The position numbers and the translations under genes were made by a program. The notes below the pieces were generated by a model. That model was given only the letters and a program-made list of their open reading frames with translations. It was not told where the DNA came from and searched no databases. DNA of 64,000 bases, taken from contig NZ_JBHYFH010000003.1 in NCBI RefSeq assembly GCF_051859625.1, forward strand, positions 310,853 through 374,852, in the 5' to 3' direction. The stretch is from Oceanicaulis sp. GTDB taxonomy: Bacteria; Pseudomonadota; Alphaproteobacteria; Caulobacterales; Maricaulaceae. This document shows, piece by piece, positions 41,143 to 49,205 of the stretch (position 1 is its first letter; each line of letters begins with the position of its first letter).

Positions 41143-41264
41143 GGCGCTTTAGCGACCCTGCTGATTGACGTCCGTGACCCGCACCTTGCCTCACAAACGG
41201 TTAAACAAGACTTGCAGCTCCGCACCCCCTGTTCAAGCCGTTGCAGCGCCCCCATATTGCCCCC

Positions 41265-43448
41265 ATGCCCAAGCTGACCCGTGATGATAGCGCCCTCGCC
41301 CCGCAAGGCGTCGAGGACATGGCCCAGGCCGATTTTGTTCAGGACCAGGCCGTGTCCGGATCCATCAAGGATCCGCTGAGCCTGCCCGCGAACTGGACCC
41401 CGCACCGTCCCGACCGCCCGGACAAATCGGAAGGCGGTCAGAAATTCCAGATGGTGTCCGACTATGAACCCGCCGGCGACCAGCCCCATGCGATCGCGGA
41501 GCTGGTGGAGGGGGTCAATCAGTCGGAGAAGGACCAGGTTCTCCTCGGAGTCACCGGCTCCGGCAAGACGTTCACCATGGCGAAAGTGATTGAAAACGTT
41601 CAGCGTCCCGCTTTGATCCTGGCGCCGAACAAAACCCTGGCGGCGCAGTTGTACGGCGAGTTCAAGGCGTATTTTCCCCATAATGCGGTGGAGTATTTCG
41701 TCTCCTACTACGACTACTACCAGCCCGAAGCCTATGTGCCGCGCACGGACACCTTCATCGAGAAGGAGTCCACCATCAACGAGGCCATCGACCGGATGCG
41801 CCACGCCGCCACCCGCGCGATCCTGGAGCGCGACGACGTCATCATCGTCGCCTCGGTGTCTTGCATTTACGGCATCGGCTCGGTTGAGACCTATACCGCC
41901 ATGGTATTCGATCTGGAGGTGGGGGCGGAGAAAGACCCCCGCCAGGTCATGCGCGACCTCGTCTCGCTGCAGTACACAAGAAACGACGCCGCCTTCCAGC
42001 GCGGCACGTTCCGCTTGCGCGGCGACGTGCTGGAGATCTTCCCCGCCCACTATGACGCCCGCGCCTGGCGCATCAGCTTTTTCGGCGACGAGATCGAATC
42101 CATCACCGAGTTCGACGCCCTGACCGGCCATCCGATCAGCACGCTTGAGAAGGTCCGCGTCTACGCGAACTCGCACTATGTCACCCCGCGCCCGACGCTG
42201 AACCAGGCCATTGTCAGCATCAAGAAGGAACTCCAGGAGCGCCTTGAATGGATGGAGGCCAACGGCAAGCTCTTGGAGGCCCAGCGCCTGCAACAGCGCA
42301 CCGAGTTCGACCTTGAAATGCTCGAGGCCACAGGCTCGTGCATGGGGATCGAGAACTATTCGCGCTATCTCACCGGCCGCAAGCCCGGCGAGCCGCCCCC
42401 CACCATGTTTGAATACATGCCCGACAACGCGCTGGTCTTCATCGACGAAAGCCATGTCACCGTGCCCCAGCTGGGCGCGATGTACAAAGGCGACTTCAGC
42501 CGCAAGCGCACCCTGGCCGAGCACGGCTTCCGCCTGCCCTCATGCCTGGATAACCGCCCCCTCAAATTCGAGGAATGGGAGGCCATGCGCCCGCAAACCC
42601 TGCACGTCTCCGCGACTCCGGGCAAATGGGAGCTGAACCAGACCGGCGGCGTCTTCACCGAACAGGTCATCCGCCCCACCGGCCTGATCGACCCGCCCGT
42701 GGAAGTGCGCCCGGTGCAGACAGACACCTCCAGCCAGGTCGACGACATCATCGAGGAGGCCCGCAAGGCCGCCGAGAAGGGCTTTCGCACCCTCATCACC
42801 ACCCTCACCAAGAAAATGGCCGAGGACCTCACCGAATACATGCATGAGCAGGGGCTGAAGGTCCGCTACATGCACTCGGACATCGACACCGTGGAGCGGA
42901 TCGAGCTGATCCGCGATCTGCGCCTGGGCGAATACGACGTCCTTGTCGGCATCAACTTGCTGCGCGAGGGCCTCGACATCCCCGAATGCGGCCTTGTGGG
43001 CATTCTCGATGCGGACAAGGAAGGCTTCCTGCGCTCTGAAACCTCGCTCGTTCAGACCATTGGCCGCGCGGCAAGGAACGCCGACGCCAAGGTGATCCTC
43101 TACGCCGACCGCATCACCGGCTCCATGGAGCGGGCGATGGAGGAGACCGAGCGCCGCCGCGAAAAACAGATCGCCCACAATCTCGAGCACGGCATCACCC
43201 CGCGCACGGTGGTCCGCGGCGTCAGCGACATTCTGCAAGGCGTGATGGAGCAAACCGCCAAAGGCCGCGGGAAAAAGCGGGACAAAAAACGCTTGACGGT
43301 TGCAGAGGAGCAAGCTTCCTTTGAACCCAATAACTTGAAGGCTACAGTCGCTGACCTTGAAAAGCGTATGCGAGAAGCTGCTGCAAATCTTGAATTTGAG
43401 GAAGCAGCACGCTTAAGAGATGAAATTAAGCGCTTGAGTGAAAGCTAA
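41265..43448 (+). CDS. uvrB: Excinuclease ABC subunit B (start may be 41319)
   Basis: [53 protein letters not shown]. Confidence 0.97.
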
Positions 43449-43453
43449 AACTA

Positions 43454-44128
43454 ATGGCAGCAAGCAACGACAATGATAGCTCCTCACACTTTATCATTTG
43501 GATTGTATTGCTCGCATTGATTGCGATTATGGGATGGTTTTTCACCGTACTCATGGCAATGGCGGACACCAACGGACCAAATATCCTTTCAGGTCCTTCG
43601 TTTACTCTTTTAATTTCAGCGCTTTTCGGTGCTGCGACCGTAGTTTTAGCAGGAACAGCAGTAACAGTTGCCGTCGTAACTTTCTTTGGTTTCCGGCAGG
43701 TTCGTCGATCTGCTATAAGTGCAGCGGTCGAGCAATCAGTTTCACAATCAATAAGCGCTGCAACTGAGACCGCAGAATCTGAAGCCCGAAAAGCTGCGGA
43801 GGCTAAAGTTCCACTTTATGTTGAAAGTTTTTTGCGGCGTGAAATTGAGTCTAATGGGTTCATTAGAAAACACATCAGCGATCGAGTAAATAAGATTGTT
43901 GAACGACTTCTCTCACAAACTCCAGCTAAGCATTTAGATGCGTTGGTTGAGGCAAAAGTCAAAGCTGAACTTGAACGACGATCTTATAATGTTGATTTAG
44001 ATGATGCTCTTAACACATTCCCGGATACGCCATCTGGAGATGATCCTGAGAATATAAGACGAACTCGGGAAACAGGCACAAATTCAGAAGCAGAAGTATC
44101 AAACCCCGAGAGGGATAGTGATGGATAA
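43454..44128 (+). CDS. Hypothetical two-TM protein with helical cytoplasmic tail
   Basis: Two hydrophobic segments, then Ala/Glu-rich helices; 5 nt after the uvrB stop. Confidence 0.75.
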   Translation: MAASNDNDSSSHFIIWIVLLALIAIMGWFFTVLMAMADTNGPNILSGPSFTLLISALFGAATVVLAGTAVTVAVVTFFGFRQVRRSAISAAVEQSVSQSISAATETAESEARKAAEAKVPLYVESFLRREIESNGFIRKHISDRVNKIVERLLSQTPAKHLDALVEAKVKAELERRSYNVDLDDALNTFPDTPSGDDPENIRRTRETGTNSEAEVSNPERDSDG

Positions 44129-44642
44129 TGCGCTTTGGTCAAAAGTACGAAGCGATGATATCTCAGTAATTGAGCCATTCCTCACTTCAACACCGGTCTC
44201 AATGAATAAAATAGCGGAAGCTCTAGGAATACGCGTCCGGGGCGCGTCATTACCTGCTGGCGTATCTGGTGAAATCAGGCCTGTTAATCCCGGAGCGAAC
44301 GAATTCATTATTCGTGTAAATCGGCATGAATCCAAAAAAAGACAACGTTTTACTGTGGGACATGAACTTGGTCACTTTCTTCTGCATCGAGAATTGATCG
44401 GAGCTGGTCTGACGGATAATGTTTTGTACAGATCTGGCCTCAGCAATAAAAAAGAGACCGAAGCAAACAAAATTGCAGCCGATCTTCTAATGCCTAAATC
44501 ACTTCTGTTTTCAAAACTTAGAAATTATACAAGTGATAAAAGAAAACTAACGCTTGATGAGCGCCCATCTATTGTAAAATTTCTTGCTGAAGATTTTATG
44601 GTTTCCGAAGACGCCATGCGCATACAACTTGGGTGGAAATAA
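44121..44642 (+). CDS. ImmA/IrrE family Zn-metallopeptidase, no HTH
   Basis: RQRFTVGHELGHFLLH (HExxH) and ETEANKIAADLLMP. Confidence 0.88.
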   Translation: MDNALWSKVRSDDISVIEPFLTSTPVSMNKIAEALGIRVRGASLPAGVSGEIRPVNPGANEFIIRVNRHESKKRQRFTVGHELGHFLLHRELIGAGLTDNVLYRSGLSNKKETEANKIAADLLMPKSLLFSKLRNYTSDKRKLTLDERPSIVKFLAEDFMVSEDAMRIQLGWK

Positions 44643-45790
44643 TGTTCGAGAATATTTCCCCATATATACCTACACTTTCAGTTAAACCTGCTGAGATGGC
44701 CGGACTAAAGAACCTTCCCGGCCCAACAAAATTCCTTTTATCGCCTCATATACTACTTCGACCTTGGGTGGGCTCTGAATATCTTGAATCTTCAATTAAG
44801 GTTATTTTGGAGGCTTATGACAGCCCATGTATTATCGAGTTAGATCCCTCCCTAGACCTAACCGAAGAAGAGGGGGAGCGGTCGGTTTTCGCCGAGCTTA
44901 GAGCTTTGACTAGCCCAGATGACGGGCACCGTAACTGGGTTAATTTCATTAACAAGCATGAGCCCTTCACCCCAACCTTGATCCAGACCGGAACTGTTGA
45001 ACAAATTAAGCAGCAAGCAAGCGCATTTTCAGAGCTTGGGCGTGGCATTGTTATGCGAATTCGTTTGCACTCAAATATTGAGGCGACAAACAATGTGACA
45101 CAGTCGCTTGATATACTGGATATTCTCAACGGGGTCGTGAAGCCTGAGAAGTTCTTACTTATTGCGGACTTCGGGCAACGCGCCCAAGGCTGGGAGTATC
45201 AAGCTGCTATTGCACATAAATTGTTGAGTGCCGCAAAGGATAAGTTTCCCATTTCAAACGCAGTTGTTTCCTCAACAACTTTTCCATTGGAATTCGATGA
45301 TAATATACCAGCTCAATCTGTCTATGAGCGTGGAATGTTTCAGCAACTTCAGCAGCTACATCCAGAGCTTCGATTAGTATATGGAGACAGAGGTAGCGCG
45401 CGTGCCGAAAGCCTTGATATTCCTCTTGGCGCCCCGCTACCAAGGATAGATTTGGCATTAGAGCATCACTGGTATTTCTTTCGGGAGAGGCCCGACTACC
45501 CAAAAGACCGGCGTGGACTGCCTGTCGTGCTCAGCCCCGAAGAGCGCAAAAGACACAAAAAAGAAGCATATATCAGAGCAGCCCGCCGTGCGATTGATTC
45601 CGAACACTGGCTGAATGTACCCAACGTTTGGGGGCGGCAACTGATTTTAGATACCTTCAATGAAGCAGAAACTGGTATTTATTCTCCGGCACGAGCAACT
45701 GCAGCTAGGATCAATATCCATTTATTTCAGCAAGCCAACTATGGATCTAAACTGCTTCCTGATCCAGAAGAGGATTGGGAAGAGTTTTAG
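44642..45790 (+). CDS. Beta family protein (T4 beta/sce7725-like)
   Basis: YIPTLSVKPAEMAGL, LVYGD, PRIDL..W.FFR, RINIHL pattern; TAATG overlap with the peptidase stop. Confidence 0.7.
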   Translation: MFENISPYIPTLSVKPAEMAGLKNLPGPTKFLLSPHILLRPWVGSEYLESSIKVILEAYDSPCIIELDPSLDLTEEEGERSVFAELRALTSPDDGHRNWVNFINKHEPFTPTLIQTGTVEQIKQQASAFSELGRGIVMRIRLHSNIEATNNVTQSLDILDILNGVVKPEKFLLIADFGQRAQGWEYQAAIAHKLLSAAKDKFPISNAVVSSTTFPLEFDDNIPAQSVYERGMFQQLQQLHPELRLVYGDRGSARAESLDIPLGAPLPRIDLALEHHWYFFRERPDYPKDRRGLPVVLSPEERKRHKKEAYIRAARRAIDSEHWLNVPNVWGRQLILDTFNEAETGIYSPARATAARINIHLFQQANYGSKLLPDPEEDWEEF

Positions 45791-46352
45791 AGAAATAACG
45801 AATTTTATTGATATTCTGCGCCCGGCAATAAATAGCACGGATAAATTCTGATCGTGGCGTCTTGTCGATCAGATCTTCAAAATTTGACTCAGCTTCTCGT
45901 CGCGTGATTTTATGACACTTTGCTATCAGACCAACCAATTCTGATGAGTTTAGAAGGGCAGCATATGAACGGACATTGTCATGAGGAACCGTTTTGCCAC
46001 GCCTTTCAACGATCACTTTTCCTTTATCGAAATATAACACCTCAACTCTTTCACCATATTTAGAAGAATCAAATCTTTTCCTAAAGCATAAATCTAAGCA
46101 AATTATCACTTTATCAAAATGATTATTGTAGATATCTATTTGATTCGATAGCTTTTTTAAGCTGTCAGATTTAGACTTAACCTCAAATGCAACTACACTG
46201 CGATTCCTGAATATTGCGCTGTCAGCTCGGCATAGACCATTAAAGAAACGGAATTCATCCACTCTAATTCCATCAATATCTTTACTGCGGCGTCGCCAAC
46301 TAGCAATCGCCGCCTCTCTCAAGTTCGCCTCAGTGGATTCTGTAATTTCCAT
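45747..46352 (-). CDS. sce7726-like PD-(D/E)xK nuclease-fold protein
   Basis: EF...RADSA...FEVKSKSDSLKKLSNQIDIY...FDKV; 44-nt convergent overlap with the Beta gene. Confidence 0.72.
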   Translation of the reverse strand: MEITESTEANLREAAIASWRRRSKDIDGIRVDEFRFFNGLCRADSAIFRNRSVVAFEVKSKSDSLKKLSNQIDIYNNHFDKVIICLDLCFRKRFDSSKYGERVEVLYFDKGKVIVERRGKTVPHDNVRSYAALLNSSELVGLIAKCHKITRREAESNFEDLIDKTPRSEFIRAIYCRAQNINKIRYFSKTLPNPLLDQEAV

Positions 46353-46417
46353 GCCCGATTGACTAGCTGTTGAACGGATTAAGATAAACCCTTGTTTGAC
46401 CGTAAGGGTAGCTCTCC

Positions 46418-46569
46418 CCTATCCCCACCCCGCCCTCACCCCCTATCCTTGCGGCATGAGCGCTGAGAGCCCTGACATCACAGATCCGAGGATCGCCCGG
46501 GCGCGGGCGATGCGGCAGGCGGGGGCGGAGACCGCCGAGATCGCGCGCGCCTGCGGCGTGGGGGTGAGC
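46418..46569 (+). repeat. Direct repeat copy 1 (upstream region + 5' end of the HTH gene)
   Basis: Near-identical to 47932..48085. Confidence 0.9.
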
Positions 46570-46587
46570 CGCCAGCGGCCCACCTGA
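46456..46587 (+). pseudogene. Truncated copy of the HTH gene
   Basis: MSAESPDITDPRIARARAMRQAGAETAEIARACGVGVS, then diverges and stops. Confidence 0.7.
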
Positions 46588-46597
46588 CCAACAACTC

Positions 46598-46696
46598 TGT
46601 CATCCCGGACGCGCAGCGAGCCGGCATCTGCCGGACACACTCTGTTCTGATCACAGAGACGCCTGCACCAGATCCCGGATCAAGTCCTGGATGACG
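46598..46696. repeat. REP-like palindromic element (YGTCAT...ATGACG ends)
   Basis: TGTCATCCCGGA ... CCCGGATCAAGTCCTGGATGACG. Confidence 0.75.
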
Positions 46697-46727
46697 GGTG
46701 GGGAGATTGGGAGAATGCGCCCAACCT

Positions 46728-46863: not shown

Positions 46864-47835
46864 CTAGCTTTCGGTCTTCTCTGGATATCCCACATGATCG
46901 GGGTCGAATTCGTTTTCTGCGCAAAGCCAGATCACGGCCAGCAGGCCAATCCATCCAAGGTTCGACCTTTCATCGGTGAAGGCGCGGCTCGGGAGCCGGA
47001 GCCATTCCCGGATGCGCGCGTCGCCCGCTCGCGGATTTTTCACGGGCAGATCGATAAAGGCCCTCGGAACGCGGTTAATGACACCCCATTCGGTCAATGC
47101 AGTGTGCAATTTGCGAAAGGGTTCCGTGTAAATGCGCTCTTTGGCGAAAGAGCGCAGGTCTTCTGGCCGCTCCTCGACATGCACATGGGGGAAGAGCGGA
47201 TCGTGGGACTGGCCCATCGGGAAATACAAGCGCTGTACATCGACGGCATCCCAGTTGATGACAAAGGTGCGCTCATCGCCGGTTATCAGGATCCCTTTCT
47301 GGCCAATCTTGAATGTGGCTTGCCCCAGCCCCGTGACGAGATAACGATCCGTTTCAGAGTCACGCCGTTCGGTCTCAATCACTTCCGACCAGGCGCGGAC
47401 ACGGCGGCTGCGAACGACATGGACGCCCAGCTGGCCGAGAAAGCCGATCGCAAACCCGACCGTGGCGACAATCCATTCCATGGCGGTCAGCACCGACAGG
47501 CCCGCTGTGATAACGCAGGTCTCGCCAGGGCAAACAAAGCTGCCCTCGGCAAGGGTTGGATCAATCTCTATCGATACCGCAGACAGGCCTTGGGACAGCA
47601 GGGCCAGAACGCCGCCCGCGACACCGAACCAGCTGGTGACCGAGACCAGTCCCAGCAGGATTTCCGTGACCGTTGAACCGCGCTGAATTTTCGAGATGTG
47701 AAGGCTGCGTCCGACATCCGCGGGCTCAAGCTGAATCGTCGCGCTGGTGAAGACGTCGTAGGCGTTCTTTTCAAAAGTCGCCTCTCTGGTTCCGGGCGCA
47801 AATTCGCTGTGCCCCGTCGGGATACGGTCTACCAT
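46864..47835 (-). CDS. Hypothetical two-TM protein with soluble C-terminal domain
   Basis: Start reassigned to MVDRIPTG; two hydrophobic helices; lower GC. Confidence 0.65.
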   Translation of the reverse strand: MVDRIPTGHSEFAPGTREATFEKNAYDVFTSATIQLEPADVGRSLHISKIQRGSTVTEILLGLVSVTSWFGVAGGVLALLSQGLSAVSIEIDPTLAEGSFVCPGETCVITAGLSVLTAMEWIVATVGFAIGFLGQLGVHVVRSRRVRAWSEVIETERRDSETDRYLVTGLGQATFKIGQKGILITGDERTFVINWDAVDVQRLYFPMGQSHDPLFPHVHVEERPEDLRSFAKERIYTEPFRKLHTALTEWGVINRVPRAFIDLPVKNPRAGDARIREWLRLPSRAFTDERSNLGWIGLLAVIWLCAENEFDPDHVGYPEKTES

Positions 47836-47931
47836 GATTGTCCCCCTCATTCCCCAGGCAGAGCCTAATTCAGACCGCGACACGCGTTCAAGCTGAACCT
47901 GACCGGGATTTCGCGTTTCAAGGGAGGCGCG

Positions 47932-48085
47932 CCTATCCCCCACCCCGCCCTCACCCCCTATCCTCACCGCCATGAGCGCTGAGACACCTGACATCACAGA
48001 TCCGAGGATCGCCCGGGCAAGGACGATGCGGGTGGCGGGGGCGGAGACCGCCGAGATCGCGCGCGTCTGCGGCGTGGGGGTGAGC
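47932..48085 (+). repeat. Direct repeat copy 2
   Basis: Near-identical to 46418..46569. Confidence 0.9.
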
Positions 48086-48679
48086 ACCATCTATCGCTGG
48101 GCCGAGGCCCATGGCTTTCGCGTCGCCGATCTGGAGGCCGCGGCCTGGGCCGCGTCGGGGCGGGGTGACGCGCCCTCTCTTTGTCATTCGCCGGTTTATC
48201 CGGGGAATCCATGCCGTGACCTGTCCTCCACTCAACCGGAATGGATCCCCCGCACAGGGCGGGGGATGACAGAGGGAGAGGGAGCGCCTCACGCGGCGGG
48301 AGGCCCCGGATCAAGTCCGGGGTTTCAGGCTGGGAAAGAGAGTGAAGAGACCGACGACGCCGAGATCACGGCGGCGCAATGGGCGGCGATGGCGCGGGGG
48401 TTGAAACAGCGCGCTGTGCGCCTGACCGAGGCCGGGCGCCTGCGCCAGGCCGAGCAGGCGCTGCGGCTGGCCGAACGCTATGAGCGGATGCAGGCCAGCG
48501 CCGCGCCGGCGCCGGCAAAGGATGACGGCGTGGATTATCACGCCCTGCTGGAAGCCAAGCTGACCCGGCTGCACGAGCACTTGCGCGAGAAGGCCGGGCT
48601 GAAAGAGGGCGAGGACTTCACCGACGCCCACCGCGCCGCCCTGGGCATCCCGCCCCTGCCGCCCGAGTATGGCGGGTGA
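47972..48679 (+). CDS. N-terminal HTH protein carrying in-frame palindromic inserts
   Basis: AETAEIARVCGVGVSTIYRWA HTH; C-terminal amphipathic helices. Confidence 0.7.
   Translation: MSAETPDITDPRIARARTMRVAGAETAEIARVCGVGVSTIYRWAEAHGFRVADLEAAAWAASGRGDAPSLCHSPVYPGNPCRDLSSTQPEWIPRTGRGMTEGEGAPHAAGGPGSSPGFQAGKESEETDDAEITAAQWAAMARGLKQRAVRLTEAGRLRQAEQALRLAERYERMQASAAPAPAKDDGVDYHALLEAKLTRLHEHLREKAGLKEGEDFTDAHRAALGIPPLPPEYGG
48182..48271. repeat. 90-bp REP-like palindrome inside the CDS, in frame
   Basis: TGTCAT...GGAATCCAT / ATGGATCCCC...ATGACA; codon-aligned 30 aa CHSP...WIPRTGRGMT. Confidence 0.75.
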
Positions 48680-48857: not shown

Positions 48858-49205
48858 ATGGCGCGTGTTTTCTACACTTATATACTCTGCAATCGCCCGC
48901 ACGGCGTGCTCTATTGCGGCGTCACCAATGACCTGGTGCGCCGGGTCCACGAGCACCGCTCAGCGCGCGGGGGCGTCTTCACGACGCGCTACAAGGTGAG
49001 GTGGCTGGTCTGGTTCGCAGGCCATGAAATTCCGGGGGCCGCCATCGGGCAGGAAAAGACGATCAAAGGCTGGCCGCGCGCCTGGAAGGTGAACCTGATC
49101 GAGACGGACAATCCCGACTGGTGCGATCTCTGGCCGGTGATTTCTCAGGCGGCGGGTGAGATGGGAGAGGGCAAGAACACGTCTTGCCATGACGATGTGT
49201 GGTGA
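48858..49205 (+). CDS. Small GIY-YIG nuclease
   Basis: FYTYIL...LYCGVTNDLVRRVHEH, EKTIKGWPRAWKVNLIE.DNPDW.DL. Confidence 0.9.
   Translation: MARVFYTYILCNRPHGVLYCGVTNDLVRRVHEHRSARGGVFTTRYKVRWLVWFAGHEIPGAAIGQEKTIKGWPRAWKVNLIETDNPDWCDLWPVISQAAGEMGEGKNTSCHDDVW

Follow-up and report, generated by a model that had tools for sequence, protein, structure and literature searches.

A four-gene islet downstream of uvrB in Oceanicaulis sp. as a probable anti-phage member of the P4 gop-beta-cII / TIM-B class

The gop-beta-cII locus of satellite phage P4 (PADLOC gop_beta_cll; DefenseFinder Rst_gop_beta_cll) is a relative of a four-gene islet that we describe here, located directly downstream of uvrB in a stretch of Oceanicaulis sp. 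DNA of 64,000 nucleotides (nt; positions 1–64,000, hereafter the window, on whose numbering all coordinates are given). Cloned gop-beta-cII protects E. coli against phages lambda and P1 (Rousset 2022, PMC9122126). Gop is toxic when beta is missing (Ghisotti 1990, as cited in PMC9122126), and the phage accessory gene orf184 triggers the toxicity of gop-beta-cII (Silas et al., bioRxiv 10.1101/2023.04.06.535777). In the P4 record, gop (133 amino acids (aa), plus strand) is followed after 3 nt by beta (355 aa, plus strand), and cII (264 aa, minus strand) is convergent to beta and carries the RefSeq name 'sce7726 family protein'. The Gop protein is small, with hydrophobic N-terminal segments and a coiled-coil tail. 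PD-lambda-2 is built from a HigB-like gene, an Xre–M78 fusion, toxic by itself, and a third gene that is needed for defence (Vassallo 2022, PMC9519451), the last being 'related to a P4 phage antitoxin' (PMC9519451); in our searches, P4 beta matches the PD-Lambda-2_C model (8e-14). Recently, a preprint of 22 October 2026 renamed the family PF14350 'TIM-B' and devoted a section to 'TIM-B systems' (bioRxiv 10.64898/2026.10.19.760177). According to the preprint, the effector beside TIM-B can be a second two-transmembrane (2TM) family distinct from Gop, and the convergent, overlapping gene is of the restriction-endonuclease type, as in P4 cII; the layout is described there from sequence, without experiment (10.64898/2026.10.19.760177).

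Our analysis indicates that the Oceanicaulis islet is probably the cargo of a defence hotspot, namely a four-gene, toxin–antitoxin-like anti-phage system of the P4 gop-beta-cII / TIM-B class. This reading is based on the homology of its third and fourth genes to P4, the same layout, the linkage of the genes across relatives, the intact catalytic signatures and the location in the hotspot. The islet comprises the following features:

43287..46416, no strand: foreign, low-GC (guanine–cytosine) islet of about 3.1 kb between the native body of uvrB and a conserved flank carrying a helix-turn-helix (HTH) gene, delimited by the GC profile and by the break in third-codon-position GC (GC3) and identity
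43287..43448, plus strand: replacement of the uvrB 3' end (last 54 codons), foreign in composition with the protein sequence retained
43454..44128, plus strand: gene A, 224 aa, 2TM protein with hydrophobic segments, in the position of P4 Gop
44121..44642, plus strand: gene B, 173 aa, stand-alone M78 (ImmA/IrrE-type) zinc metallopeptidase (Pfam PF06114)
44642..45790, plus strand: gene C, 382 aa, Beta / TIM-B protein (Pfam PF14350, PADLOC 'beta')
45747..46352, minus strand: gene D, 201 aa, P4-cII / sce7726-family protein (NCBIfam NF033832, PADLOC 'cll')
45747..45790, no strand: tail-to-tail overlap of genes C and D, 44 nt, from the stop codons in the raw sequence
46353..46416, minus strand: right edge of the islet, to which the foreign DNA upstream of gene D is confined, defined by position only

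The GC content is 0.37–0.47 across 43250-46250 and 0.60–0.66 on either side (about 44% versus about 63% overall), and the islet is horizontally acquired DNA. In the raw sequence, uvrB (41241-43448) ends with a TAA stop, followed by five bases (AACTA) and the ATG of gene A at 43454. Genes A and B overlap by 8 nt (gene B ATG at 44121) and genes B and C by 1 nt, the ATG of gene C at 44642 lying within TAATG. All four reading frames are intact, and the translational coupling is retained. A model that had read the sequence without database searches had reported low GC, three coupled genes starting 5 nt after uvrB and a 44-nt tail-to-tail overlap between the Beta and nuclease genes; all of these are borne out by the GC profile and the raw sequence. 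In a scan of 42900-46700, matches to promoter and terminator consensus sequences occurred in numbers at or below chance, with none between uvrB and gene A and none between genes C and D. The 64 nucleotides of the right edge presumably hold the promoter of gene D, and no consensus promoter was found within them. Matches of the islet proteins to hidden Markov model (HMM) families are far beyond chance by their E-values.

The homology to P4 is clearest in gene C, which matches the Pfam family Beta_protein PF14350 with an E-value of 1.2e-39 and the PADLOC 'beta' model with an E-value of 4.7e-35, and which is 27% identical to P4 beta over its full length (E 1e-31, BLASTP). The AlphaFold2 (AF2) model of Beta has a predicted local distance difference test (pLDDT) score of 89.6 and adopts, by Foldseek comparison, a triosephosphate isomerase (TIM)-barrel fold plus a helical C-terminal part; the alignments for structure prediction were built without the P4 rows. 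The best Foldseek matches are triosephosphate isomerases, old yellow enzymes and diaminopimelate decarboxylase, with E-values from 3.5e-4, and they are generic TIM barrels with TM-scores of 0.28–0.54. A search of PDB sequences with the Beta profile gave nothing relevant. The Beta alignment contains 36 invariant positions, many of them charged (D176, E229, R230, D249, R250, R254, R268, D270, R281, R356, N358 and H360 are among the invariant residues), and these would suit an enzyme or a ligand-binding site better than a passive antitoxin. No NCBIfam model matches Beta at E <= 0.1, so that by that model it is not a member of sce7725. The pairing of sce7725 with sce7726 mentioned in the original prediction therefore loses its first partner, and gene D does pass the sce7726 model.

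Gene D scores 73.1 bits against the cut-off of 70 for NCBIfam sce7726_fam NF033832, matches the PADLOC 'cll' model (E 7e-19) and is 40% identical to P4 cII over the catalytic core of 73 aa (E 2e-9, BLASTP). Across 29 sequences including P4 cII, the residues E8, E33, R42, D44, E57, K59, D63 and Q71 are invariant and form, as read from the alignment, the E...D...ExK...Q pattern of restriction-endonuclease-like enzymes. The AF2 model (pLDDT 91.5) has SPO1766 (3dnx) as its best PDB match (E 1.8e-5, Foldseek), followed by XisH, FANCM/FAAP24, Bax1, AF1548, XPF and McrC, all of which share the restriction-endonuclease-like fold; a search of PDB sequences with the gene D profile gave no meaningful match. 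The assignment of gene D as a PD-(D/E)xK-type, sce7726-like gene, made from the letters alone, thus holds by family model, invariant residues and fold. Gene D and its Maricaulis relative are short forms, in which part of the C-terminal helical region present in most members is missing.

Gene B matches Pfam Peptidase_M78 (E 7e-17) over residues 32-169 and contains the HELGH motif. No HTH domain was found in it by Pfam, and the protein ends after the peptidase domain, without a sensor domain. Its best PADLOC match is capP (6e-28), followed by RmrA and, weakly, PD-Lambda-2_B (2e-4); among solved structures, IrrE (3dte, E 0.003) is the closest in sequence. Among 58 peptidases, H81, E82, H85 and E112 (the HExxH motif and the glutamate of ExxAN) are invariant, as are H89, D99, R104 and S105. 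An intact HExxH peptidase without HTH had been read from the sequence here, and the motif and the family-wide invariance of its active-site residues agree with it. On the strength of these conserved catalytic signatures, the peptidase and the nuclease are both likely active. By direct comparison, gene B is unrelated to P4 Gop.

Gene A encodes two hydrophobic segments (residues 7-39 and 47-81), as had been predicted, followed by a helical region and an acidic C-terminus; among its relatives, the conserved core is the second transmembrane segment. No family match was found in Pfam or NCBIfam, and there was no match to HigB. No homology to P4 Gop was detected either by BLASTP (E 0.19) or by hhalign with a 24-sequence profile (probability 0.6), and no protein of the window matches the PADLOC 'gop' model, for which P4 Gop itself scores 4.8e-70. 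Since there is no detectable sequence relationship between gene A and Gop, we claim only a shared topology, and gene A is presumed to be a membrane effector in the Gop position.

With Beta as the query, tblastn of phage records recovers P4 and a single Pasteurella phage. In the latter, the temperate phage Pmp11 (L088 3086-5378), the genes for a 2TM protein of 131 aa and for Beta, together with a convergent gene of 260 aa, lie directly beside that of a cI-like repressor. The product of the first gene of Pmp11 has the same build as P4 Gop and gene A, the phage proteins being 2TM proteins of about 130 aa with a coiled coil.

The original prediction could not match the module to a named system; by comparison, our searches place genes C and D with PADLOC 'beta' and 'cll' of P4 gop-beta-cII, and the overall layout is that of the TIM-B system of the preprint. 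As in P4, the window has homologous Beta and cII proteins in the same order and convergent layout, with a small 2TM protein first. The two loci differ in that the window carries an M78 gene between the 2TM gene and beta and its 2TM protein is not detectably related to Gop, and in that beta and cII of P4 are separated by a 27-nt gap with an annotated terminator, whereas the corresponding window genes overlap by 44 nt. All four elements of the TIM-B systems of the preprint occur in the window, in the same order: an upstream co-directional 2TM gene, a metallopeptidase gene, a PF14350 TIM-barrel and a convergent, overlapping nuclease gene. Gene A may belong to the '2TM-B' family of the preprint, and the window nuclease departs from the preprint's systems in its short length of 201 aa, part of the C-terminal helical region being absent. 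PD-lambda-2 shares with the window an M78 peptidase protein and a Beta-like third gene, whereas it begins with a HigB-like gene and carries an Xre HTH on its peptidase; the window has instead a 2TM protein, an M78 domain only and a cII-type nuclease. The M78 fold and zinc site of gene B are common to CapP/CapH, IrrE/DdrO and ImmA/ImmR, but unlike these the module has neither a cognate HTH repressor nor a controlled operon of a cyclic-oligonucleotide-based anti-phage signalling system (CBASS) or of a mobile element. RosmerTA was considered as an identity for gene B and ruled out: RmrA is an HTH plus M78 protein of about 360-400 aa paired with RmrT, while gene B has 173 aa and is matched by the RmrA models only through their peptidase part (profile positions about 146-287 of 357-400).

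The linkage of the four genes was assessed with 144 Beta relatives from a protein search and 64 loci from a scan in which each species was represented by one genome. Motifs of the window's Beta clade served to recruit the loci, whose neighbours were scored by phmmer of the open reading frames (ORFs) of each locus, so that the counts refer to this Beta clade and not to the entire PF14350 family. In 60 of the 64 loci the gene immediately upstream of Beta is an M78 homologue, and in 56-57 of them a cII/sce7726 homologue follows downstream in convergent orientation. A relative of gene A was scored upstream of the peptidase in 51/64 loci by phmmer; five of the seven loci scored without it carry, by eye, a 2TM gene of the same design, bringing the total to at least 56/64, and most of the other gaps are contig ends or broken copies. 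All four genes were scored together in 46/64 loci, so the co-occurrence elsewhere that had been proposed as a check on the module is indeed wide. Most hosts belong to the Alpha- and Gammaproteobacteria, and Bacteriovoracaceae, Eremiobacterota and Treponema contribute one locus each; a Vibrio copy sits in an island together with an integrase, AlpA, Mrr, HsdR and HipA. In one case M78 and Beta are fused in a single chain (P0047, 541 aa; L083 383-2008), at a locus where an upstream ORF overlaps the fusion gene and a convergent gene belongs to the Pfam family Phage_P4_cII.

The convergent packing of genes C and D is likewise conserved: the median stop-to-stop distance is -4 nt, and the genes overlap in 32 of 57 loci. 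This conservation makes an antisense interplay or an interference between converging transcripts plausible, as was suggested for the 44-nt overlap from the sequence. The preprint likewise proposes interference between converging transcripts (10.64898/2026.10.19.760177).

Among the local evidence, the position of the islet speaks most strongly for a defence role. The four nearest species have 2.9-3.6 kb of differing low-GC DNA between uvrB and the same HTH gene, and according to PADLOC the cargo is Kiwa (KwaA and KwaB) in G014, PDC-M53 A and B in G013 and an SIR2/ThsA-like protein in G021, with weaker matches in G024. In O. alexandrii, the slot holds a second 2TM–M78–Beta module (L014 / L069; 624-2722 of L014), whose proteins are 29%, 50% and 33% identical to the 2TM, M78 and Beta proteins of the window. 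A 92-aa ORF without family match stands in place of the nuclease gene, of which no remnant was detected in that module by tblastn; the low identity and the lack of the nuclease gene indicate that the O. alexandrii module is a separate acquisition. The uvrB–HTH site is thus a defence hotspot in the genus Oceanicaulis (loci L013-L018). The islet itself was found in none of 40 relatives searched, and homology to the sibling genomes resumes at 46416.

The left boundary lies within uvrB and not after it, a correction to the original prediction. Over its last 54 codons, uvrB has a GC3 of 0.37 versus 0.85 in the rest of the gene (0.84-0.86), and here the identity to the nearest sibling species drops to 64-69% from 95-98% upstream; against the siblings, the identity is 0.59-0.74 at the 3' end versus 0.79-0.98 upstream. 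The foreign DNA therefore begins at about 43287. Because the 3' end is foreign in composition and divergent while the protein is retained, the islet was brought in through a recombination event inside uvrB, and its donor, of lower GC, already carried the module at a distance of 5 nt from the end of uvrB. A junction with uvrB also recurs in nine loci of Rhizobium, Agrobacterium, Pararhizobium, Neorhizobium and related assemblies (L020, L022, L023, L026, L028, L040, L044, L078 and L081), where uvrB lies on the nuclease side and is co-directional with the nuclease gene, in reversed orientation compared with the window. Altogether, about 11/65 loci, the window included, adjoin uvrB.

The 5-nt gap and the lack of any promoter or terminator match between uvrB and gene A would allow co-transcription with uvrB, and read-through is possible. 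Because the module arrived with a foreign uvrB 3' end and the Rhizobiaceae uvrB reads into the nuclease gene, it is conceivable, although we think it rather unlikely, that the recurrent junction is no accident of the hotspot and that uvrB read-through biases a convergent switch between effector and nuclease, which would tie TIM-B immunity to the expression of nucleotide-excision repair. In a more modest version, the conserved uvrB 3' end may serve as a portable homology anchor for the exchange of defence cassettes between distant taxa.

On these observations, a working model of the defence system may be outlined, each step of which we hold with much less confidence than the defence-module reading as such. 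In the uninfected cell, the TIM-barrel Beta would silence the effector arm, as P4 beta does for Gop, and a phage cue would then lift this restraint. The M78 peptidase, working with Beta, may add a proteolytic step, its target being most likely the cytoplasmic tail of the 2TM protein or Beta itself; the peptidase has neither a sensor domain of its own nor an HTH substrate, and a fusion to Beta is seen at least once. The 2TM protein would subsequently damage the membrane and halt the infected cell. The convergent PD-(D/E)xK protein may act as a second, DNA-directed effector or as a regulator, with its expression set against the A–B–C operon through the overlapping 3' ends.

The same evidence bears on three other explanations. 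The module could be a plain addiction (toxin–antitoxin) cassette that stabilizes itself or the islet with no anti-phage benefit, as might be thought of a small, self-contained and horizontally mobile unit whose P4 counterpart gop/beta acts as a toxin–antitoxin pair. We regard this as unlikely, since relatives with the same core protect against phages, the slot carries recognized defence systems in sibling species, and four conserved genes, two enzymes and a nuclease among them, exceed the needs of simple addiction. That the islet is instead what is left of a decaying P4-like satellite or prophage and no longer has a function, a thought that arises from the founding members on P4 and on a temperate Pasteurella phage, is scarcely probable: the four frames are intact, all invariant residues are retained and the translational coupling is preserved. 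We reject this reading, as neither an integrase nor any other gene of phage type shows up in the islet by ORF list and Pfam.

The original prediction had also linked the module to DNA damage and uvrB regulation. Accordingly, it could be a damage response module, co-transcribed with uvrB and activated by damage through its IrrE-like peptidase. IrrE, ImmA and CapP are proteases that respond to DNA damage; the 5-nt gap without a promoter or terminator match, the pre-existing uvrB–module junction in the donor DNA and the nine Rhizobiaceae-type loci all fit such a scheme. However, the vicinity of the uvrB promoter contains no alphaproteobacterial SOS box of the form GTTC-N7-GTTC, even with one mismatch allowed, the search giving 32 matches versus 46 expected by chance. 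Furthermore, the uvrB neighbourhood is confined to a minority of loci and is reversed in Rhizobiaceae, unrelated defence cargo occupies the same slot of siblings, and the peptidase has neither the sensor domain nor the HTH substrate found in damage-responsive systems. We therefore consider a damage response very unlikely, and the link to uvrB regulation finds no support. By comparison, the suggestion of an anti-phage or abortive module, from the same original prediction, is very probably right.

Several observations nevertheless weigh against the defence reading. Gene A has no detectable homology to Gop, and its role as toxin is read from position and topology only. For the protease-bearing four-gene members, defence, toxicity and proteolysis are all inferred. 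The preprint ties TIM-B specifically to deazaguanine transglycosylases, with nucleobase transfer as the corresponding activity (bioRxiv 10.64898/2026.10.19.760177); the transglycosylase link was not reproduced here, as these enzymes are absent from the top 50 Foldseek PDB matches of the Beta model. No HTH repressor of the type cut by ImmA, IrrE or CapP is found in the module; Pfam, PADLOC and NCBIfam detect no HTH domain in any of genes A–D, and the closest gene of that kind belongs to the conserved flank beyond the islet. Finally, the O. alexandrii module has no nuclease gene, which indicates that gene D is not essential to every member.

Given two experimentally proven relatives and the computational description of the same layout in the preprint, the module is a real, intact member of a described class and not a new kind of system, and as a discovery the locus adds little beyond the 2026 preprint. 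Only two E. coli forms of the gop-beta-cII / TIM-B class are proven phage defences, and the locus is a compact, fully intact example of the most widespread, protease-bearing form in a marine alphaproteobacterium. It is a reasonable candidate for a first test of the peptidase target, of the TIM-barrel as an enzyme and of the nuclease as a back-up effector. In addition, recognizing a defence hotspot of Oceanicaulis downstream of uvrB may aid in finding further systems in the genus.

Further features were observed to the right of the islet. The beginning of the HTH gene occurs in two copies, at 46416-46569 and at about 47950-48100 of the window, and the two copies bracket a second insertion with a 408-aa ORF (46864-48090, minus strand) that has no match in Pfam, PADLOC or NCBIfam. 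A repeat of about 100 bp at 46597-46700 has many copies in the genome and in the siblings, with 75-89% identity, and looks like a repetitive extragenic palindromic (REP) or miniature inverted-repeat transposable element (MITE)-like element. Just past the HTH gene, a gene of 115 aa (48858-49205) encodes a small stand-alone GIY-YIG domain (Pfam E 9e-11).

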